In this document: piece after piece, positions 1,843 to 10,343 of the stretch
Position numbering within the stretch: the stretch's first letter is position 1
How the letters are laid out: each line of letters starts with the position of its first letter
Source of the DNA: Actinomycetes bacterium
GTDB lineage: Bacteria > Actinomycetota > Thermoleophilia > RBG-16-64-13
Direction of reading: 5' to 3'
Length of the DNA: 64,000 nt
Assembly: GCA_024637035.1 (NCBI GenBank)
Contig: JAGXFW010000025.1
Span: 11,626 to 75,625, forward strand
Translations under genes and position numbers: made by a program
The notes under the pieces: model-generated
What the model saw: only the letters and a program-made list of their open reading frames with translations
Database searches by the model: none
Told to the model about the DNA's origin: nothing

Positions 1843-3144
1843 GTGGATGCCATCGACAGCGGAGATACCGCCTTCATTCTCGTCTCGACCGCGCTGGTCA
1901 TGCTCATGACCCCGGGGCTTGCCCTCTTCTACGGGGGCATGGTGCGGAGCAAGAACGTCATGAGCGTCCTCATGCAGAGCTTCGTACTCATTGGTCTTGT
2001 GTCCATCGTGTGGGCCGTGATCGGCTATAGCCTAGCCTTCGGATCCGACCACGGGGGAGTGATCGGCTCACTGGAGTGGATAGGCTTGCGCGGTGTCGGA
2101 CAGGCGCCGAACGCCGACTACGCAGCCACCGTACCCCATCTGGCCTTCATGATGTTCCAGGGGATGTTCGCCGTGATCACTCCGGCGCTCATCACCGGGG
2201 CATTCGCCGAACGCATGAAGTTCTCGACGTTCCTCGTCTTCAGCCTACTGTGGACGGTGCTGGTCTACAGTCCGACAGCCCACTGGGTGTGGGGAGTGGG
2301 AGGATGGATCCGGGAACTCGGTGCTTTGGACTTCGCCGGCGGAACGGTGGTTCACGTCAGCTCGGCCGTAGCGGCCCTCGCTGCTGTGTTGGTCATCGGC
2401 CGGCGGCGTGGCCACGGGACGGTGGCCATGCATCCACACAACCTGCCCATGACCCTCATGGGCGCGGGCATCCTCTGGTTCGGTTGGTTCGGCTTCAACG
2501 CCGGCAGCGCCCTCTCCTCGGGAGGTCTCGCGACCCAAGCGTTCGTGACCACGCACCTCGCCGCCGCCGCCGCGGCTCTATCGTGGGCCGCCGCCGAGTG
2601 GGTGCATCGAGGCCAGCCGACCAGCCTCGGCGTGGCCTCCGGGTTGGTGGCGGGTCTCGTGGCCGTCACCCCAGCCGCAGGATTCGTGGGGCCGATGTCG
2701 GCCATCGTGATCGGACTTGTGGCGGGCAGCCTCTGCTACTTGGGCGTACTCGCGAAGTTGAAGCTGGGCTACGACGACAGCCTCGACGTCGTCGGCGTTC
2801 ACGGGGTGGGCGGCACGTTCGGTGCGATTGCAACCGGGCTCCTCGCGCAGGCGGCTGTCAACTCGGCGGGCGCGGACGGTGCTTTCTTCGGCAACCCAGG
2901 GCTGCTGGCCAAGCAGGCAGTGGCCGTGTTGGCGGTCATGGCCTGGTCATTCGGGATCACCTACGGCATCGTAAGCCTGCTCAAAGCGTTCATGGGCGCC
3001 CGCGTGGACGAAGAAGCCGAGATGCTGGGGCTCGACCTGAGTCAGCACAGCGAGGCAGCCTACGCATTCGGAGCGGATGGCGGTTGGCGTCTGCAGCCAG
3101 AGCAACTGGGCGGTCATCCCGAGGCGACTGGGCTCACGGGCTAG
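1843..3144 (+). CDS. amt: Ammonium transporter Amt
   Basis: 433-aa polytopic membrane protein with Amt signatures (DTAFILVSTALVMLMTPGLALFYGG, twin-His region). GTG start with GGAG upstream. Confidence 0.9.
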   Translation: MDAIDSGDTAFILVSTALVMLMTPGLALFYGGMVRSKNVMSVLMQSFVLIGLVSIVWAVIGYSLAFGSDHGGVIGSLEWIGLRGVGQAPNADYAATVPHLAFMMFQGMFAVITPALITGAFAERMKFSTFLVFSLLWTVLVYSPTAHWVWGVGGWIRELGALDFAGGTVVHVSSAVAALAAVLVIGRRRGHGTVAMHPHNLPMTLMGAGILWFGWFGFNAGSALSSGGLATQAFVTTHLAAAAAALSWAAAEWVHRGQPTSLGVASGLVAGLVAVTPAAGFVGPMSAIVIGLVAGSLCYLGVLAKLKLGYDDSLDVVGVHGVGGTFGAIATGLLAQAAVNSAGADGAFFGNPGLLAKQAVAVLAVMAWSFGITYGIVSLLKAFMGARVDEEAEMLGLDLSQHSEAAYAFGADGGWRLQPEQLGGHPEATGLTG

Positions 3145-3191: not shown

Positions 3192-6100
3192 CTACTTCTT
3201 CGCGAACTTGAACCCCGCGAACTGCCCCGAGAGCTTGTTCATGAACTCCGGGAGGTTGTCCCCCAGACCGGCCGCCTTGAGAGCAGCATCGCCGGCCTCC
3301 GGTTTCCACGCGCCCGAGGCGACCTTCTCGACGATATGCATGCCCTTCAGCATCTCGGGGGGCGTGGGCTTCATCTTGTAGTCCTGAGCCATGTAGCCTG
3401 TCTTCGTCTCGACGAAGGAATGCGTGGCTTTCTCTGCCTGCTTGTAGGCGTCCAGCGTATTGCCGTCATGATACGACTCGGCCACCTTGGTCTCGTAGGT
3501 CTTGCCCAGGCCGTCGGGGTCCCGAAGCGTCGACTTGCCCTGCTTGGTGAGCGACAGGTTGCTTGTGGTCTGGGTCCTTTCCAACTTCCCAGTCGCCGGG
3601 TTCTTGACCCACGCTTGGTCGGACATGTCCACGGAAGCTTCGGCGTGATAGCCATCGGTGGGGAGTTGCTGCCGCTGACGCGACCACTCCGCGGCCTTGG
3701 CCGGGTCCTTCGGACCGCCCGTGACCTCGGAGAAGATCTCCTGCGACTTCCCTGCCCACTTCTCCTTGGGGATCTCGATGAAGATGTCCTTGCCGGTCAC
3801 AGGGTCCTTCTTCACGATGCCGGCACGATAGTCGCGATCTGTGCCGTGCGCATCACCAAACGGTTCCACCTTCACCTTCTGACCCTTGGCCTCAGGCACG
3901 TTCTGCTCCACCCACTTCGCCAACTGCGCGTCGTGCTTGCCGTACACCTCCTGCCGCGCGTTGTCGTAGGCCTCCCACGCTTTGGGGTCGTTCTTCCGAA
4001 GTTCGCGCGCGCCGTCGGGGTCGCGCATGATCTTCTCCATGGTGGAGTGGTCTACCGTGGGCTTGCCGTCGGCCCCCTTCGTGACTTTGTCCTTCACGCC
4101 CTTCGCCATCTTCTGGGCCCGGGTGCCGGGATCGGGCGCGTCGAACTCGGGAGCGTGTGCCGCCGGCTTGTGCCGAACCGTCTGCTTCTTGGCGCCGGGG
4201 CCGGGATGCACGACGCTGCCCGGGGCCGGCGGTGGGCGAGGCGGCTTCTGGCCGGGCCTCACGACGCTGCCCGGAGCGGGGGGCTTCCGTCCTGGCTTGG
4301 GCGCCGTCGGGCGCTTGGGTGCCTCCACCTCGGGCGTCCCTTTCTTCGCCCCCGGGGTCGCCCCGGGGGTAGCGCCCGTCACCATGCGCAGGAAGCTGAT
4401 GATGGCTTGGTCACGCAGCATCTTGAGCGTGCGCTCCATGGCCCCGGTGATACTGTGCTCCGGGTCGAGAGCCCATTCCTTCGCGAACGTGTAGCCGATG
4501 AAGGCCAGCCACACCACGGCCTTGTTGCGCCCGGTGAGGTGGGCGATGAAGTCGGGGTCGGTCCACTGGCCCTCGACGACGTTCAAGCCCAGGACGATCT
4601 GCTGCTTCGCCCACCACGTGAGGTCGCGCCCGTCGACGTACGCCTCCATGGCCGAGACGAGGACGGGTTTCGCCATCCCCAGACCGATCGCGCCGAGGGA
4701 GCCGAGGATGGAACCGCTCGCCACCCCGAGAGCGATGTCGCCGCAGTAGGAGATCCAATCGAGCACCCCCTCCACCTGCTCGATGTACCAGGCGATCTCC
4801 TCCCAATCGGCAGCCTCTTGGCTGAAGGCGTTCTCCGAGATGTCCCAGACGCGCTTGCGCATCTCGTAGAGACCCTCGGCCCCCATGAGCGGGCCCCGCT
4901 CCACCACCAGGTCACGGAACTTCTGCTGGTGTTCGCGCGGGGCGAAGTCCTCGATGATCTTGAGACAGCGCTCGCGTTCCAGTTTCCATTCCGGGGAGAA
5001 GGGCGAGGTGTCGACGCCCAGCAGCTTCAGTGCCACGTCGGCGGAGAACTCCGGCTTGTCGAACCCAGGCACCGACGCGCGCAGGATCGCCGGCACGGGC
5101 TCCCCGGAGGTGGGGAGTTTCCGTGCCAGGACCGCCCTGAACGTCGCCGATGGGTTCTCAACACCGCGTCGTCCGGTGTGCTCGATCGTGAACTCGCGGA
5201 ACCCGAGCGCCGTGTGCCCCGGCGTCTTCTCAGGACCGCCCGGTCGCCACTCGACCGCGTCGGAGAGCTCCGGCTCCAGCCGGATCGTTCCGGACTCATC
5301 GCGCGCATAGACCCGCACGTCGATCTCGGTGGGTTCGCCCTCGCCCCGCGCCTCAAGGTGGAAGGTGCCGTCCGGGTGACGCCCCACCGGGTCCACGAAC
5401 AGGCCCTCACGGGTGACGCTCACCTTGAGATACCGCTCGAGACGGTCCCAGCCCTCGCCGTCCGCCGCAAGGACGAGGGTCGACACCTCTTCGGGACGAC
5501 CGATGTCGGGCAGGGCGACGGCGTCCTCGGTGAGGGTGACCACGGCCGTTGACGCCGTCTCCCGCTTGATCTCGACCCGGGCGACGGGCCGGTCGCCTTC
5601 CCGCCACTTCGACGTGAACGCCCACTCGAGGCCGCCGGGATTCTCGACCCACAGCACGGATTCAGCGATCTCTCGAGTGCCCACCGAGAACTCCACGGAG
5701 TCAGGCCGACAGTCGAGGACGGGCGGACGCTCCAAAGCCACCGTGACGCTCCCCTCGAGGATCTGCACGCCCAGCTGTGCGGTCGCGGCGACGCGAACGG
5801 ACTCCGGAGGGGTGACGGGATGGTCGGGATCGGGGGGTGACGCAGCGATGGGGATGGCCTTGCCGTCGGGCACGTCTACCTCTTCACCCACATCGAGCCA
5901 GTCGGCCGCCGACGGGCGGCCGAAGCGGATCGAACGCCGTGCCGTCTCGAGGTCGAAGGCGGGGTTGGCCTGCGCCGCCGGGCTGGGCTTCAGCACGGCC
6001 ACCACCCTCGCGACGTCGCGACCATTCGGCTTGAGCGACTTCCCGGGGGGCTCGAGGGTCACCTCGAGCGTGCTCTCCTGCTCGCCGGTGAGGGACACTT

Positions 6101-7217
6101 GAGCGGATGTCGCACCCTTGGAGGCCCGAGCCGCGACCCCGAGAGCGGCACCCGGCGCCACGTCCCCCGTCTGCCACACCGCGGCCTCCAGAGGCGACGG
6201 GCCGGAGGTCGGCGCCACCCCGACCCCCGGAGGCGGCCGCAGCGTCACGGTGGCGTCATCGGCTGGCTCCACTGCTCCCGAGGCGAGCACCTTCCACACG
6301 CGCGCCGAGAACCCGGCGGAGTACGCGGATGAGAGATCGAGATGTTCAGTGGAGAGTTCGAGCACATAGCCCACGTGCTCTTTGGGGTCGAGCTTCTTCT
6401 TCTTGCCGCGGCCGGAGGCTGCAGCACCGGCCACAGCAGCCGCCGCGGCCGCGACGGCGCCGGCTGCCGCGCCAGCGGTCTCCCAGGGGAGGCCACCCTC
6501 TGCGCTCTGGCTGCCACCACCAACCTGAGTCGAGCCGCCATCGGTCCACTCGATATCGAGGCCCTCGAATACCGTCTGATTCTCTGCCCACAGCGCATCG
6601 AGTTGATCGAAGTAGGCGGGTCGAACCATCACACCGCGTCCCACGAGAACTCCGACATCACCAAGTGGGATGTAGTAGGTGATCGATCGGCTCATCTCTA
6701 GAACCCCGGTGAAGGACTCACCCGTCGTCTCGACAGTCCCCTCGGTGAAGTATGCCGGCTTGCCGAACAACTCGATCGTGCCGTTGCGGTTGGCAACCGG
6801 TCGGTCGGAGTAGGTGGTGAAAGGCACGGAGGTGGCTTCTCCGCCTCCGAGAGGGTCCTGAATCGGGGTATTCGCAATGCGTTCCCAGTCGAACCCGTCA
6901 AGGAACACCTCGAGATCCTTGTACGGATCTCCCGGCACGATGGATACGAACACCGATGATCCGAAGGCCGGTAGGCCGTCCTCCGTACTCTCTTCGCGCT
7001 TGACCGATGTCAGGTAGTTCGGTTCTCCGTTGGGCGCGGCGTTCTCCTTGAACTGCCACGCTGCGGGCTGCACGTTGAACTTGACGGTGGCGACGGGCTC
7101 GGCGAGCGCGGGGGCGCTCCCGGCCAGCACCGCAAAGACGACGCTCCCGACGAGAAGACAGAGTCGGACGGTTCGCGACAGAGGAGTCACCGGTGTACGC
7201 CGCGCGCGAACGCTCAC
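3192..7217 (-). CDS. Large (about 1,342 aa) signal-peptide-bearing protein of unknown function, with beta-rich middle domains, a Pro-rich linker and a Lys-rich C-terminal domain
   Basis: The 1,609-aa track ORF is trimmed to a GTG at 7217 that overlaps the upstream gene's stop as GTGA. The trimmed start is followed by a Sec-type signal peptide (VRARRTPVTPLSRTVRLCLLVGSVVFAVLAGSAPALA|EP). No Walker A, HExxH or CxxC motifs were found. Confidence 0.6.
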   Translation of the reverse strand: MSVRARRTPVTPLSRTVRLCLLVGSVVFAVLAGSAPALAEPVATVKFNVQPAAWQFKENAAPNGEPNYLTSVKREESTEDGLPAFGSSVFVSIVPGDPYKDLEVFLDGFDWERIANTPIQDPLGGGEATSVPFTTYSDRPVANRNGTIELFGKPAYFTEGTVETTGESFTGVLEMSRSITYYIPLGDVGVLVGRGVMVRPAYFDQLDALWAENQTVFEGLDIEWTDGGSTQVGGGSQSAEGGLPWETAGAAAGAVAAAAAAVAGAAASGRGKKKKLDPKEHVGYVLELSTEHLDLSSAYSAGFSARVWKVLASGAVEPADDATVTLRPPPGVGVAPTSGPSPLEAAVWQTGDVAPGAALGVAARASKGATSAQVSLTGEQESTLEVTLEPPGKSLKPNGRDVARVVAVLKPSPAAQANPAFDLETARRSIRFGRPSAADWLDVGEEVDVPDGKAIPIAASPPDPDHPVTPPESVRVAATAQLGVQILEGSVTVALERPPVLDCRPDSVEFSVGTREIAESVLWVENPGGLEWAFTSKWREGDRPVARVEIKRETASTAVVTLTEDAVALPDIGRPEEVSTLVLAADGEGWDRLERYLKVSVTREGLFVDPVGRHPDGTFHLEARGEGEPTEIDVRVYARDESGTIRLEPELSDAVEWRPGGPEKTPGHTALGFREFTIEHTGRRGVENPSATFRAVLARKLPTSGEPVPAILRASVPGFDKPEFSADVALKLLGVDTSPFSPEWKLERERCLKIIEDFAPREHQQKFRDLVVERGPLMGAEGLYEMRKRVWDISENAFSQEAADWEEIAWYIEQVEGVLDWISYCGDIALGVASGSILGSLGAIGLGMAKPVLVSAMEAYVDGRDLTWWAKQQIVLGLNVVEGQWTDPDFIAHLTGRNKAVVWLAFIGYTFAKEWALDPEHSITGAMERTLKMLRDQAIISFLRMVTGATPGATPGAKKGTPEVEAPKRPTAPKPGRKPPAPGSVVRPGQKPPRPPPAPGSVVHPGPGAKKQTVRHKPAAHAPEFDAPDPGTRAQKMAKGVKDKVTKGADGKPTVDHSTMEKIMRDPDGARELRKNDPKAWEAYDNARQEVYGKHDAQLAKWVEQNVPEAKGQKVKVEPFGDAHGTDRDYRAGIVKKDPVTGKDIFIEIPKEKWAGKSQEIFSEVTGGPKDPAKAAEWSRQRQQLPTDGYHAEASVDMSDQAWVKNPATGKLERTQTTSNLSLTKQGKSTLRDPDGLGKTYETKVAESYHDGNTLDAYKQAEKATHSFVETKTGYMAQDYKMKPTPPEMLKGMHIVEKVASGAWKPEAGDAALKAAGLGDNLPEFMNKLSGQFAGFKFAKK

Positions 7218-8053
7218 TTCCGGAACCCCGCGATCGCCGTCGAGACAGCCAGCACCAGCCCGGAAGCCACGACCACCAGACTGGGGATCAGAGTCACCAG
7301 GCTGCCCGGGTCCGAACGGGCGCCGAAGGCAGCCACGCCCAGCGAGACGAGTTGCACCCCGCCCGTCACTATCGAAGCGATCCCGGTAAGAGCGCGCAAC
7401 CGGCCACCCCCCCGGCCTGCGACCATACCCAAGACCGAGGTCGCGGCCCCCGAAAGTACCCGCATCGCAAGCATGGGCACGTTGACTGCGCCTCCCGAGA
7501 GCAGGGCGATGAGCACATCCATCACCACCGTCACCGCAAGGCCGGCGGCCGGGCGGCGCAAGTTGGGCCGGGGAGCCATTGCCAACAACGACGGCGCGGC
7601 GGCACGGGCGAGCCCGGCGACGTCGGCGGTCTGTCCCCTCGAGATCGTCTGCCAGGGCAGCGTGAGCGCCAACCCTCCGAACGAGCCGACCGAACTCACG
7701 ATACCCGCTGCCGAGGCCGTCCCAGAGAGCACGGCCGTGACCCCCCCGGAGTGGGGCCGTGGGGGCGGAGGCGGGGTCGCGGTGGGCAGAGGCGCGGCTG
7801 TCTCGGGGGGGAGCGCGGGCGGCGAGCCCGCGGGCTCCGGTGTAGCGCCCGGCGAAGCCCCCACCGACGCGATCCGGGCACCGCAGGAGATGCAGAAGGC
7901 CTTCCCGGGCACCAGAGTCGAGCCGCACTCGGAACACGCAGCGGGCATCGGGGGCGACCCCGGTCGTCGGGCACCGCACGCCGTGCAGTACAGCACGCCG
8001 GGCGCCAGCTCGGCCCCACACGTGGTGCAGAAGGTCACCGAACGTGCGCTCAC
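7214..8053 (-). CDS. Double zinc-ribbon membrane protein
   Basis: Two CxxC...CxxC ribbons (CTTCG..CTACG; CSECG..CISCG), a Pro-rich linker, then 3-4 predicted TM helices. Its stop overlaps the downstream giant gene's start (GTGA). Confidence 0.6.
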   Translation of the reverse strand: MSARSVTFCTTCGAELAPGVLYCTACGARRPGSPPMPAACSECGSTLVPGKAFCISCGARIASVGASPGATPEPAGSPPALPPETAAPLPTATPPPPPRPHSGGVTAVLSGTASAAGIVSSVGSFGGLALTLPWQTISRGQTADVAGLARAAAPSLLAMAPRPNLRRPAAGLAVTVVMDVLIALLSGGAVNVPMLAMRVLSGAATSVLGMVAGRGGGRLRALTGIASIVTGGVQLVSLGVAAFGARSDPGSLVTLIPSLVVVASGLVLAVSTAIAGFRK

Positions 8054-8300
8054 GCGCCCGACTCGGTCATCGCGTCCCCATACGCTGCCGCTGTCGACCC
8101 GCCATCCCGCCTCCGGTATCTCGGAAGTGGTACGACAATACTACGGCCGGTCAGCGCGGCACAAGCAAGGCGGGCCGGCATGTGGGGTGCATCGGACTTG
8201 GATGCGCCGCGAGAGACGCACAGAACGGCCGGGGCCCGCTACCCGCGGACCCCGGCCCGTCCTCGATCTACCTGCCCGCGGTCTCTACCTTCTCACGGGT

Positions 8301-10343
8301 CTACATCCCCGTGAAGTCCGCCTTCTTCCCGCTCACGAAAGCGCCGATCCCCTCAACCGCGGCCTTGGTCTCGGCCACCTTGCCGAAGGCCTGGTAGCCG
8401 ATCTCAAGAGCGGCGGGCAGGTCGGGGGCGCCGAGGCCGTCCTTGATGGCCGCCACGATGATGTCGATCACCTCGCGGGAGAGCACCATGCCGTCGGCCG
8501 AGACCGCCTCACCGGCCACCAGGGCTTCGTCGGCCACCAAGCTGAGGTCGGCGGCGGGCAACGGCAGGGTACCGGCGAGGCTGCGGGCGCGCTCGGCCGC
8601 GAGCCGCACGAGCGCCTCGTAATCGGCCTCGACCGCGGACACCATGCCGAGTTCCAAGGCTAGGACAGCCGGGAGCCGGTCGGCGCGAGTGATCATGTCG
8701 GTGAAGATCTTGGCCGCGGCGGGCCACTTGCGGTAGGGCACCACCAGACCACCGATGCCGGGCAGGATTCCGAGCGTGACCTCGGGCATCTGGAAGTAGG
8801 CCTTCGGATGCGCCACGATGTCGTGGCAGCGGGTCGCCAGTTCCATGCCGCCGCCGAGCGCCAGACCGTTCACGGCCGCGACAACCGGCTTGGTCATGGT
8901 ATCGAGGTGTAGGAGGAGGCTCCCTGAGTCGCGTGAGTAGTCCACGGCCGCGGGTCCGTCGCCCAACATCTCGGTGAAGCGTCCGATCTCGGCCCCGGCG
9001 CAGAAGGCGCGGGTGCCGTAGCCTACGATGACGAAACCGGTCACCGAGTCATCAGCCTCGAAGGCGCGGAGTACCGCCAGGATCTCGTTGTTGACATCGT
9101 CGCTAAGCGCGTTCATCTGGGCTGGGCGGCGGATGGTGATCACCACCACGTCGTCCAGACGATCGACTAGTACGAAGCGGTTGAAGGCGGTGGCTGCCTC
9201 ATAATGGTCGAGCAGCTCAGGGCCGGGCAGCCCCGGGCGCTCCGCGGCCAGGCGCTCGAGCACCCGGGAGACTTCGCCCTGGCCGGCCTTCGCCATGAAG
9301 TCGAGCGGGCTCTCCTTGAAGCCGAGGGCCAAGAGGGAGCCCAGGTGCAGGTCCTCGGGCGCACCGATGCCACGGGCGACGATGTCCAGACACTGGCTGA
9401 ACAATATGCCGAGCAGGCGGTCCCGCACAGCTCCGCGGAGTTCGTCGGACACCTCGACAGGCGTGCCGGGCCTATTGACCTCCCAGCGGTCGACGCTGAG
9501 GAGGAGTTCGGTGGGCTTGTAGGCCGGACTCTCCACCATCTGCCGCGTGTTGCACTCGTAGCTGATGGGGTTGCCGTTGGCCATGTTCAACACGAAGAAC
9601 GGCCCGGCGTGCACGAACTCCTCGGCCACCGCGTCCACCTGCTTCGCGGTCACGTCGCCCCGCATCAGGAGGTTGGCGGCGTCGCAGGTCCAGTTGTCGA
9701 AGATACGGTCGAGCATGAAGGCGATGGCGTCGTCGGTGACCAACGGCACCTTGCCGGTGACGGCGAACATCCAGCGCAGATAGTCGACCACTTCACGGTC
9801 GCCACCCTCCCAGGTGATCACTTCGACGGCGGGGTTGCGCCAGGCAGGGGCGAAGAAGTGGGTGATGGCCGTGCGGCCCGGCAACTTCATCTCGTCGAAG
9901 AGCCAGGAGGCGGGGATGGAGCTCGTGTTCGAGCAGATGATGGCGTCAGACGCCACGCGCTCTTCCACCATCGCGAAGATCTTCTTCTTGAGCGGGATGC
10001 TCTCCGTCGCCGCCTCGATCACCAGATCGGCATCGGCCAAGGCGTCGTAGTCGCTGCTGGTCACGACGCCTTCAAGCACCTTGGCGGCCTTCTCCGCGTT
10101 CATCTTCCCGCGCTTGATGCCCTTGTCGATATAGCTCTGAAAGCGGGGTACGACACCGGCGAGGGCTTCCTCGCGGATGTCGATCAGGGTGAGCTTCAGG
10201 CCGGGCACAGCTGTCTTGAAATAGTAGCCGATGTCGGGTCCGATGGTGCCGGCCCCGATGATGGCCACGTGCTTGGGCAGATCGGTGCGCGGCGAACCGA
10301 GCAGTGGGTTGTGGAACCCCGGATACAGTACGTTTTGACTCAT
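8301..10343 (-). CDS. fadB: Bifunctional 3-hydroxyacyl-CoA dehydrogenase / enoyl-CoA hydratase, with dehydrogenase N-terminal and hydratase C-terminal
   Basis: N-terminal NAD-binding GxGxxG (VAIIGAGTIGPDIG, 3HCDH_N). C-terminal crotonase fold (VVITIRRPAQMNAL...FCAGAEI). Confidence 0.85.
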   Translation of the reverse strand: MSQNVLYPGFHNPLLGSPRTDLPKHVAIIGAGTIGPDIGYYFKTAVPGLKLTLIDIREEALAGVVPRFQSYIDKGIKRGKMNAEKAAKVLEGVVTSSDYDALADADLVIEAATESIPLKKKIFAMVEERVASDAIICSNTSSIPASWLFDEMKLPGRTAITHFFAPAWRNPAVEVITWEGGDREVVDYLRWMFAVTGKVPLVTDDAIAFMLDRIFDNWTCDAANLLMRGDVTAKQVDAVAEEFVHAGPFFVLNMANGNPISYECNTRQMVESPAYKPTELLLSVDRWEVNRPGTPVEVSDELRGAVRDRLLGILFSQCLDIVARGIGAPEDLHLGSLLALGFKESPLDFMAKAGQGEVSRVLERLAAERPGLPGPELLDHYEAATAFNRFVLVDRLDDVVVITIRRPAQMNALSDDVNNEILAVLRAFEADDSVTGFVIVGYGTRAFCAGAEIGRFTEMLGDGPAAVDYSRDSGSLLLHLDTMTKPVVAAVNGLALGGGMELATRCHDIVAHPKAYFQMPEVTLGILPGIGGLVVPYRKWPAAAKIFTDMITRADRLPAVLALELGMVSAVEADYEALVRLAAERARSLAGTLPLPAADLSLVADEALVAGEAVSADGMVLSREVIDIIVAAIKDGLGAPDLPAALEIGYQAFGKVAETKAAVEGIGAFVSGKKADFTGM

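Follow-up and report, generated by a model that had tools for sequence, protein, structure and literature searches.

Polymorphic toxins of the Rhs, CDI and LXG types are very large multidomain proteins with an enzyme-like C-terminus and a small, tightly linked neighbouring gene. PASTA Ser/Thr kinases of the PknB type cross the membrane once and join an extracellular domain, which is the variable end, to a large cytoplasmic part with an enzyme-like domain. Consecutive immunoglobulin (Ig)-like beta-sandwiches occur in invasin/intimin, cadherins and SbsC, the tripartite signals of sortase and exosortase systems are laid out in three parts, and kanamycin nucleotidyltransferase (KNTase, of the ANT(4') type) and MNT-HEPN pairs consist of a Pol-beta-fold catalytic lobe and a HEPN-like helical substrate-binding lobe. 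A gene pair on the minus strand of contig JAGXFW010000025.1 of an Actinomycetes bacterium shares features with each of these systems and, in our assessment, lies outside the known kinds. The pair was found in the stretch of 64,000 nucleotides analysed here (hereafter the window), and it encodes a zinc (Zn)-ribbon membrane protein (the partner) and a 1,341-residue multidomain protein (the giant) that ends in a conserved C-terminal domain (CTD). It is very probable that the two proteins make up a genuine, conserved membrane module and represent a new family. The only known parts of the pair are the Zn ribbon and a generic Ig-like fold; no description of the giant, the CTD or the pairing was found in Pfam, NCBIfam, PADLOC, the PDB or the searchable literature on the gene combination.

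The gene pair and its conservation

The features of the pair and of the sequence before it are listed below in order of transcription. The layout of the giant was derived from hydropathy, a family alignment (A1) and two AlphaFold2 (AF2) runs on family alignments.

8101–8170, minus strand: promoter-like conserved block with a -10-like TAGTAT at 8143–8138 (conservation only)
8050–8070, minus strand: upstream open reading frame (ORF) of six codons, MTESGA and stop, with a Shine-Dalgarno-like GGGGA before it (sequence reading)
8053–7214, minus strand: partner gene, 279 amino acids (aa) (translation, Pfam, alignment A5 of 11 partners, partner hidden Markov model (HMM), third-position GC content (GC3) 0.83)
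7970–8032, minus strand: Zn ribbon 1 of the partner, CxxC...CxxC, residues 8–28 (Pfam Zn_Ribbon_1/DZR)
7871–7939, minus strand: Zn ribbon 2 of the partner, residues 39–61 (Pfam; C40, C43, C54 and C57 invariant in A5)
7217–7714, minus strand: membrane domain of the partner, residues 114–279 (alignment A5, hydropathy)
7214–7217, minus strand: GTGA overlap of the partner TGA (7216–7214) and the giant GTG (7217–7215), the site of translational coupling (sequence reading)
7217–3192, minus strand: giant gene, 1,341 aa and stop (translation, orthologues, ratio of nonsynonymous to synonymous substitution rates (dN/dS) 0.22, GC3 0.835)
7101–7217, minus strand: predicted signal peptide, residues 1–39, with Arg-rich n-region, hydrophobic core and ALA/EP cleavage site (sequence, hydropathy peak 2.13)
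6498–7100, minus strand: hypervariable putative ectodomain (N-terminal domain, NTD), residues 40–240 (23% identity to the closest orthologue, poorly conserved columns in A1, no Pfam match)
6390–6497, minus strand: junction with GGLPWET, Ala-rich predicted transmembrane (TM) helix 248–268 and GRGKKKKL (P244 and W245 invariant)
4995–6389, minus strand: four tandem Ig-like beta-sandwich domains, residues ca. 277–741 (AF2 model m4523198feca4, predicted local distance difference test (pLDDT) ca. 90)
4368–4994, minus strand: helical domain (HEL), residues 742–950, with a glycine-zipper hydrophobic helix at 826–858 (91% identity to the closest orthologue, many invariant residues)
4116–4367, minus strand: Pro-rich tether, residues 951–1034, with repeated PAPGSVVxPG (sequence; length differs among relatives)
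3195–4115, minus strand: CTD, residues 1035–1341 (307 aa), Lys-rich (AF2, pLDDT 86)

At the junction (...CGG AAG TGA GCG...), the partner TGA overlaps the giant GTG as GTGA, in agreement with the first-pass annotation of this DNA, and the giant read from this GTG begins MSVRARRTPVTPLSRTVRLCLLVGSVVFAVLAGSAPALA/EP. The same annotation had proposed a single intact gene of 1,342 aa; the gene and its boundaries stand, with a length of 1,341 aa. An artefact, i.e., a pseudogene, a mis-assembled multi-gene fusion or a chance long ORF, has to be considered here. High-GC DNA yields long spurious ORFs, the giant frame stays open upstream to position 8021 in a mechanical ORF list (1,609 aa; 268 extra codons), and the partner of the closest orthologue is frameshifted. 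However, GC3 was only 0.66 over this extension (7218–8021) in the giant frame (first-position GC content 0.83), compared with 0.83 in the partner frame and 0.835 in the giant proper; the extension was therefore regarded as read-through without coding function, as is typical when a genome has 67% GC. In addition, full-length collinear orthologues of 1,261–1,374 aa were found on many independent contigs at 38%–83% identity. The closest one, at locus L006 in a metagenome-assembled genome (MAG) of an uncultured actinobacterium (83%), gave a dN/dS of 0.22 over 1,305 codons. Together with the GC3 of the giant and the confident structure predictions, these results effectively refute an artefact, whose probability we consider negligible. 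The pair itself, whose conservation across genomes was checked as the first-pass annotation had proposed, recurred at each of the 11 distinct loci of actinobacterial type that were compared, in many cases with an overlap of 1 or 4 nt, as at L001 (both copies) and L004. Both genes are thus real, co-inherited and under purifying selection.

Conservation was uneven along the giant. Identity to the L006 orthologue was 23% in the ectodomain, 90% in the TM junction, 86% in the Ig rod, 91% in HEL and 87% in the CTD, so the variable end is the N-terminal surface domain rather than the C-terminus. Most relatives had an N-terminal hydrophobic segment equivalent to the signal peptide. Much of the anatomy had been anticipated by the first-pass annotation: the signal peptide (AxA/EP, here ALA/EP after residue 39), the Ala-rich segment with KKKK (248–275), the beta-rich Ig-like segments (now four beta-sandwiches, predicted by AF2 over residues ca. 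281–736 at pLDDT ca. 90), the glycine-zipper segment and the long proline-rich spacer were all recovered, and the Lys-rich C-terminal domain was present but comprised 307 aa instead of roughly 350 aa. A strong AT skew (-0.35, plus strand) at 3501–4500 coincided with the CTD-coding part and was attributed to the unusually Lys-rich (AAG) composition of the CTD in a 67% GC genome. Searches against Pfam and NCBIfam returned no family for the 1,341-aa giant, including SLH, Big, Cna, CARDB and LPXTG-type wall-anchoring or adhesin families. Sequence searches of the PDB with whole-protein, close-CTD and diverse-CTD profiles gave only chance matches (E ≥ 0.086), and PADLOC-DB 2.0 contained no family matching either protein of the pair at E up to 1.

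The partner consists of two Zn ribbons, a Pro-rich linker, an LPWQT motif, ca. four TM helices and a basic C-terminus (GFRK). Its Pfam matches, Zn_Ribbon_1 (PF13240; 45 bits, cut-off 25, two stretches) and DZR (PF12773; 31.6 bits, cut-off 27.3), bear out the two CxxC-CxxC ribbons proposed earlier, and hydropathy placed ca. four TM helices in the C-terminal half, consistent with the earlier estimate of three to four. Zn ribbon 2 was present in 10 of the 11 partners aligned in A5; the L012 partner, identified later, had no ribbon. In the same alignment, the extra Zn ribbon 1 was found only in the window and L004 partners, a single ribbon being otherwise usual. Invariant positions in the membrane part were LPWQT, P168, T175, D179, G187, R198, T205 and G217. 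The partner HMM matched a protein beside the giant at L001 (both tandem copies), L004–L012 and L044. The L006 partner (9074–9629) was split into two frames, with the Zn ribbons in the extended frame of the giant and the TM part in another, which points to a frameshift in the assembly or to decay of the partner gene.

Upstream of the pair, the promoter-like block was near-identical in the window and L006 (ca. 8935–9000) amid diverged intergenic DNA, with shared letters ...GCTTGTGCC...CCGGCCGTAGTATTGTCG...ACTTCCGAGA.ACCGGAGGCG.GATGGCGGG; other loci had TACAAT or TACACT 30–45 nt before the partner start. A simple scan for sigma-70 promoters found nothing. The TGA of the leader ORF overlaps the GTG start of the partner, forming a second GTGA junction at the locus. 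This ORF was kept in L006 (MTESGR and stop) and was absent from more distant loci. From this sequence arrangement, the pair appears to be its own transcription unit, composed of the promoter-like block, the leader ORF, the partner and the giant, with three frames joined by GTGA overlaps. Rfam returned no family at gathering score over the whole window, and hence no riboswitch clue.

The CTD family and its zinc-ribbon partners

A word-index protein search among 5.8 billion clusters recovered 10 full-length relatives and five fragments, all from metagenomes or MAGs; the two with an organism name were both labelled Coriobacteriia. Similarly, a scan of GTDB species genomes found eight giant loci, all in MAGs. 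The impression of a tiny family (10–15 members) was nevertheless false, because an exhaustive profile search with the CTD recovered 271 representatives at E ≤ 1e-3 (242 at E ≤ 1e-10 and 146 at E ≤ 1e-30). The CTD family therefore comprises at least 271 clusters at 50% identity, and domain HMMs were applied to 150 listed members to define their architectures. Named members belonged to Actinomycetota, Bacteroidota (Lutibacter sp. WP_456464046.1 and an Aureispira MAG) and Verrucomicrobiota (Akkermansiaceae). One low-GC protein from JGI (P0056) carried the source name 'adenine-specific DNA glycosylase', which looks like a mis-annotation. Four architectures were distinguished:

Architecture (a), window type: signal peptide, ca. 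200 aa, TM helix, Ig domains, HEL and CTD; also in proteins assigned to Bacteroidota by NCBI
Architecture (b): signal peptide, TPR repeats, long spacer, Ig3–4, HEL and CTD, without a further TM helix; L013 (labelled Verrucomicrobia) and comparable contigs from metagenomes
Architecture (c): CTD immediately after the signal peptide, with repeats of helical and Ig-like type behind it
Architecture (d): N-terminal polytopic domain with 6–8 TM helices and the CTD at the end, with Ig and HEL between them in some

No Pfam annotation covered the CTD in proteins of any of the four architectures. The distribution is patchy across phyla, with few members per lineage, and searches of plasmids, phages and viral contigs gave no match to the giant family. 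The earlier suggestion of an accessory envelope system agrees with this patchiness and with the membrane or envelope association of the proteins.

A metagenome scan with the motif NTDRD[YF]RV added 60 further CTD loci. A Zn-ribbon protein was encoded within a few genes in 39 of ca. 66 CTD loci, many of the others being truncated at the gene, and this association spanned sequence backgrounds with a GC content of 0.27–0.71. The Zn-ribbon partners fell into at least six unrelated families, most of them membrane-bound and two soluble. Alignment of the membrane domain of the window-type partner with the Zn-ribbon partners of other phyla by hhalign indicated no homology (probability < 2%), implying that the conserved feature is the architecture rather than one family. 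Moreover, three proteins of architecture (d), P0114, P0153 and P0157, unite a Zn ribbon and a polytopic start with a CTD end in a single chain, P0114 also including Ig-like and HEL regions. The recurrent pairing and these fusions provide strong sequence-based evidence for a functional, probably physical, partnership between the CTD protein and a Zn-ribbon membrane protein.

The setting of the pairing differed among clades. In low-GC loci (L014–L035 and L039), whose giants resemble those named Bacteroidota, the giant was followed by a Zn-ribbon protein with 3–4 TM helices and a second membrane protein, which at about half of the loci contained a Zn ribbon; next came, in many cases, a 2-TM protein whose Zn ribbon is C-terminal, and then a DUF4349 lipoprotein. 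A small 2-TM gene was often located upstream of these loci on the opposite strand. In Verrucomicrobia-type loci (signal peptide/TPR), a 2-TM Zn-ribbon protein preceded the giant, sometimes after an AsmA-like gene. An AsmA-like gene of ca. 1,430 aa (weak Pfam match, E 0.02) was found upstream of the exported giant at L046, L051 and L053, with a Zn-ribbon 2-TM gene between the two at L051 and L053. Shorter CTD proteins were accompanied by soluble Zn-ribbon proteins.

These comparisons bear on whether the giant could be a toxin-like effector with the membrane partner as its translocator or immunity protein, as the first-pass annotation had also suggested. In favour of this, the giant is large and multidomain, its C-terminus is enzyme-like, a small membrane protein is tightly coupled to it, and the glycine-zipper helical domain could insert like a translocation domain. 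However, the CTD is conserved across phyla rather than polymorphic, and the combination of a conserved CTD (87% to L006) with a hypervariable NTD (23%) is the opposite of the pattern in polymorphic toxins. The small gene precedes the giant in this clade but follows it in others, does not represent one homologous family and has a Zn-ribbon membrane protein as its product in place of a cognate immunity protein; among the loci compared, no conserved immunity-like gene was found downstream of the giant. Furthermore, the giant had no Rhs/YD, haemagglutinin, LXG or PT-domain signature and no match to a known toxin family, no secretion-system genes were located nearby, no association with plasmids, phages or other mobile elements was seen, and the topology predicted below would keep the CTD in the cytoplasm of the producer. 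A toxin-like role is therefore extremely unlikely, and we do not retain this suggestion.

Membrane topology and the C-terminal domain

In the window giant, the Ala-rich helix is marginal in hydropathy (Kyte–Doolittle (KD) mean 1.71, nearly all Ala). The equivalent segment in low-GC relatives is plainly hydrophobic (e.g., TVIGLVGAGLVAAIIA and IIIGALGAGVVASIIAML), preceded by an acidic run and (L/V/F/T)PWx(T/V) and followed by up to ten Lys/Arg residues. Among 42 relatives, the 15 residues preceding the helix had a mean net charge of -1.7, against +3.0 on its C-terminal side, and 37 of the relatives were consistent with this orientation. A hand count in P0114 gave seven TM helices before an 'ADDGGW' motif and a short Ala-rich helix, which leads to the same orientation. 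The LPWxT-TM-KKKK element is thus predicted to be a genuine stop-transfer TM helix (N-out/C-in) that is conserved across phyla. Of the two earlier interpretations of the Ala-rich segment and KKKK, TM helix or linker, the conserved motif-TM-polybasic order and the flanking charges support the former and not the latter. Given a signal peptide and a stop-transfer helix, the giant would be a type I bitopic protein, with a domain of ca. 200 aa facing outwards and ca. 1,050 residues, including the Ig rod, HEL and CTD, in the cytoplasm. This topology, which follows from the positive-inside rule and the fusions, is likely. The earlier designation as a surface system would accordingly apply to the N-terminal domain and not to the Ig-like and CTD parts.

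The LPWET-hydrophobic helix-GRGKKKK element shares its family-conserved three-part layout with sortase and exosortase signals. In contrast to those signals, it is internal (residues 243–276 of 1,341) and over 1,000 residues follow, its motif is PWx[TV] rather than LPXTG or PEP, and no sortase-like gene is linked to it. A related motif, LPW(Q/E)T, occurs in both proteins of the pair (partner residues ca. 130–136 and giant residues 243–247), each time beside a Gly/Ala-rich hydrophobic stretch. In the polytopic fusion proteins, 'ADDGGW(R/Q)EAGG' stands where the pair has the LPW(Q/E)T junction. A sortase-like processing role of the partner was considered and dropped: the membrane part has no invariant Cys, His or Ser, and the positions conserved in A5 include no Cys/His/Ser set suggestive of a protease or sortase-like enzyme. 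The arrangement also recalls the PknB-type kinases, from which the giant differs in several respects. Its order is reversed, with the sensor N-terminal behind a cleavable signal peptide and the catalytic-like domain at the far C-terminus; ca. 700 residues of Ig-like and helical domains and a Pro-rich tether separate the membrane from the CTD; it has no kinase, cyclase or known output domain; and its Zn-ribbon polytopic partner is obligate.

The Ig-like domains raise the alternative of an adhesin or S-layer-like protein that is entirely extracellular after the signal peptide, in which the KKKK segment would be a linker, the rod and spacer would hold the CTD off the wall, and the partner would serve as an anchor or assembly factor. 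The signal peptide, the Pro-rich spacer and a tandem Ig-like array similar to the rods of invasin, cadherin and SbsC fit this alternative, and exported relatives do exist. Foldseek searches with the Ig region returned these proteins as the best matches, with generic similarity only (E ca. 1e-13, TM-score ca. 0.2, ca. 10% identity); the earlier proposal to run Foldseek on the central segments thus yielded generic Ig rods and nothing else. Unlike the rods of invasin/intimin, cadherins and SbsC, the giant has no anchoring or adhesive tip domains, and its rod is predicted to be cytoplasmic. No wall-anchoring or adhesin family was detected, and no homology to a characterised adhesin or S-layer protein, which the first-pass annotation had named as a competing explanation, was recognisable with Pfam, NCBIfam or the PDB profile search. 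The motif-TM-polybasic element is conserved, with an unambiguous helix and many basic residues in low-GC relatives, and the fusion of N-in Zn-ribbon polytopic domains to the chain positions the Ig region on the inner side. The distal CTD is conserved and the membrane-proximal NTD is variable, which is the reverse of adhesins. An adhesin-like role is thus very unlikely.

Conservation of the CTD was assessed with 148 sequences (mean identity ca. 27% in a diverse subset); adding 1034 to the CTD numbering gives the protein numbering. Positions conserved at 85%–100% were R37, D62, T88, D93, R94, D95, R97, E114, W120, T153, D154, E159, A160, D163, D166, Q167, D199, K210, Q226, K229 and Y241. The AF2 model (pLDDT 86) comprises N-terminal helices, a three-stranded sheet with a hairpin, and a C-terminal helical bundle. 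The small beta-sheet carries T..DRDxR and E and is followed by a TDxxHxEAxxDxxDQ segment, and the helical bundle carries K1244, Q1260, K1263 and Y1275. The consensus F-R-T-P-G-x6-10-(N)T-D-R-D-[YF]-R spans a loop and the second strand, with W-x-E-V-P on the next strand. Judged from the alignment, these ca. 20 near-invariant polar residues look like an active site, and the combination of six carboxylates with Arg, Lys, Gln and Tyr is as expected for a metal-dependent phospho- or nucleotidyl-transfer site. The earlier statement that no catalytic motif is recognisable holds for known motifs, yet it overlooked this family-wide invariant acidic and basic constellation. On balance, we lean slightly towards the CTD being an enzyme.

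Among known enzymes, the KNTase and MNT-HEPN types offer the closest parallel. In a predicted order that resembles these proteins, what may be a small alpha/beta lobe of the CTD precedes a helical bundle, possibly of four helices; one strand carries DxD, with a carboxylate on its neighbour and a Gly-containing loop before it, and invariant Lys residues are present in the helical lobe. The DxD region is compatible in outline with the pattern hG[GS]-x9-13-[DE]h[DE]h plus a third carboxylate, although the gap is short and no helix separates the Gly loop from the DxD strand. Foldseek with the CTD model found nothing significant (best E 0.33); its weak matches included CutA, TUT1, TUT7 and the nucleotidyltransferase-like structure 3c18. 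The top match, CtaG, was rejected, as it is a papain-like ligase and the CTD has no conserved Cys. Comparison with a verified KNTase by hhalign was negative (probability 0.2%), and neither 15 close nor 29 diverse CTDs matched any Pfam or NCBIfam family even at E up to 10, including NTP_transf_2, HEPN and NTase_sub_bind. The CTD differs further from the KNTase and MNT-HEPN proteins in the absence of the Rx4-6H motif, in its terminal position on a membrane-anchored protein of 1,000 aa, and in being exported in some relatives. Hence, a nucleotidyltransferase-like identity is a lead that we regard as rather improbable, and the CTD fold is possibly new.

Locus surroundings and a possible mechanism

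The GC content of the window was 63%–72%, and the neighbours of the pair were unrelated housekeeping genes. A FadB-like dehydrogenase/hydratase and a thiolase are encoded upstream of the pair, and the following gene lies downstream.

1843–3144, plus strand: Amt ammonium transporter, opposite in strand to the pair, between the giant and a NifS-like desulfurase (493–1626)

In L006, the desulfurase directly follows the giant, and the Amt gene therefore looks like a local insertion or rearrangement. At other loci, the genes downstream encoded Nth, NifS or membrane proteins of two families (one with a Zn ribbon and one with five TM helices). Adjacency to Nth/MutY was considered as a functional link and rejected, being lineage synteny limited to several actinobacterial loci and absent in other clades. 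No further members of the accessory families were found elsewhere in the window.

Tandem paralogues, with partner and giant present twice, were found at L001 (6381–18683), L011 (9333–19141) and L015 (2–8755). The second copy at L001 did not match the window-type NTD profile, and at L011 the first copy alone matched it, while the cytoplasmic parts were conserved in both copies at L001 and L011. The third genes at L001 differed by copy, one encoding a protein with a Zn ribbon, TM helices and an ectodomain and the other a 5-TM protein. The hypervariable ectodomain and the tandem paralogues, together with the patchy distribution and the HEPN-like helical bundle of the CTD, could suggest a role in conflict or defence, in which the ectodomain would be a sensor of or decoy for phages or competitors, the HEPN- or nucleotidyltransferase-like CTD an abortive-infection or signalling effector, and the Zn-ribbon proteins co-effectors. 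However, neither protein matched PADLOC, searches of plasmids, phages and viral contigs gave no match to the family, the surroundings are housekeeping genes in lineage-level synteny and not a defence island, and the Rx4-6H nuclease motif is missing. We consider such a role improbable.

Taken as a whole, the data are best explained, albeit tentatively, by a two-protein inner-membrane complex of a new superfamily acting as a bitopic sensor and effector; the sensor/effector logic itself is doubtful. Under this model, the two GTGA junctions would couple translation and favour co-ordinated, co-localised synthesis. The giant would insert as a type I protein, with cleavage of the signal peptide and the hypervariable domain outside, where it might bind an external ligand or surface. 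The hypervariability of the ectodomain and the tandem paralogues suggest that such external ligands are diverse. The polytopic partner, whose Zn ribbon or ribbons are predicted to be cytoplasmic, may assemble with the TM and juxtamembrane region of the giant at the shared LPW[QE]T motif and regulate or dock its cytoplasmic part. The Ig rod, HEL and the flexible Pro tether would position the CTD, with HEL probably lying against the membrane through its glycine-zipper helix. As the output, the CTD would be a metal-dependent transferase-type enzyme in which D1127, D1129, E1148, D1188, E1193 and D1197 may bind metal and R1071, K1244 and K1263 may bind phosphate.

Several observations weigh against this sensor/effector model. 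In architecture (b), Ig3–4, HEL and CTD lie behind a plain signal peptide without a further TM helix, and in architecture (c) the CTD comes straight after the signal peptide; in both, the CTD must be extracytoplasmic, which fits poorly with a cytoplasmic enzyme using nucleoside triphosphates and with a universal sensor/effector logic. The hydrophobic helix of HEL cannot rescue a single topology, because its hydropathy is borderline (mean KD 1.46 and 1.32) and acidic residues flank it at either end. If the glycine-zipper helix truly spans the membrane in some members, as it could, their CTD would lie outside. In the bacterial cytoplasm, tandem Ig-like rods would be unusual. The AF2 models were based on shallow alignments (10–15 sequences; predicted TM-score (pTM) ca. 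0.5), and the all-helical prediction of HEL was of low confidence, with pLDDT < 50 over the hydrophobic part; a membrane-insertion domain of the colicin or Bcl-2 type, in which amphipathic helices surround a hydrophobic hairpin, was considered as a parallel for HEL. In the helical lobe of the CTD, R1272-x-G-Y1275-x-x-Q1278 occurs with no conserved His instead of the HEPN Rx4-6H motif, and the pair, whose neighbours are unrelated housekeeping genes, has no link to a signalling pathway or target.

Some of these points suit another explanation, namely membrane-surface maintenance or remodelling. Ig-HEL-CTD would then be a peripheral enzyme or scaffold acting on a lipid head group or membrane-embedded substrate at either face, with the glycine-zipper helix inserting monotopically, the Lys-rich CTD binding anionic lipids and the Zn-ribbon polytopic proteins serving as receptors. 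This explanation is the only one that accommodates both the predicted cytoplasmic and the exported architectures. It also agrees with a HEL helix whose borderline hydropathy and acidic flanks would suit an interfacial or buried position better than a membrane-spanning one, with a Lys-rich CTD in a 67% GC genome, and with the AsmA-like giant gene before Verrucomicrobia-type pairs and the DUF4349 lipoprotein after Bacteroidota-type ones. Nonetheless, it rests entirely on inference: the AsmA match is weak, no lipid-binding or lipid-modifying family was detected anywhere, and the hypervariable ectodomain and tandem paralogues are left unexplained. We regard this explanation as unlikely. For the sensor/effector model, in turn, the anatomy is well supported, the topology moderately and the mechanism weakly.

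Regardless of the mechanism, the CTD family represents a sizeable portion of protein 'dark matter', with no counterpart in Pfam, NCBIfam or the PDB, no significant structural neighbour and residues resembling an active site, and its link to the abundant, functionally opaque Zn-ribbon membrane proteins gives the latter a first concrete partner. The problem is experimentally tractable, because one member has a RefSeq accession from the genus Lutibacter (WP_456464046.1). If membrane-surface maintenance proves to be the role, the family would provide a new envelope-maintenance activity working on both membrane faces. If the sensor/effector model is true, it would reveal a new way in which bacteria link a fast-evolving surface domain with an enzyme in the cytoplasm. 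In its full form, which we regard as speculative and doubtful, the proposal is a new catalytic fold within a new multi-phylum class of transmembrane machines, in which a hypervariable surface domain controls a tethered cytoplasmic enzyme via an Ig-like rod and a helical domain held against the membrane, with obligatory Zn-ribbon co-subunits, the enzyme being periplasmic in exported variants. The function of such a machine could be surface surveillance, through the sensing of phages or neighbours, or envelope homeostasis.

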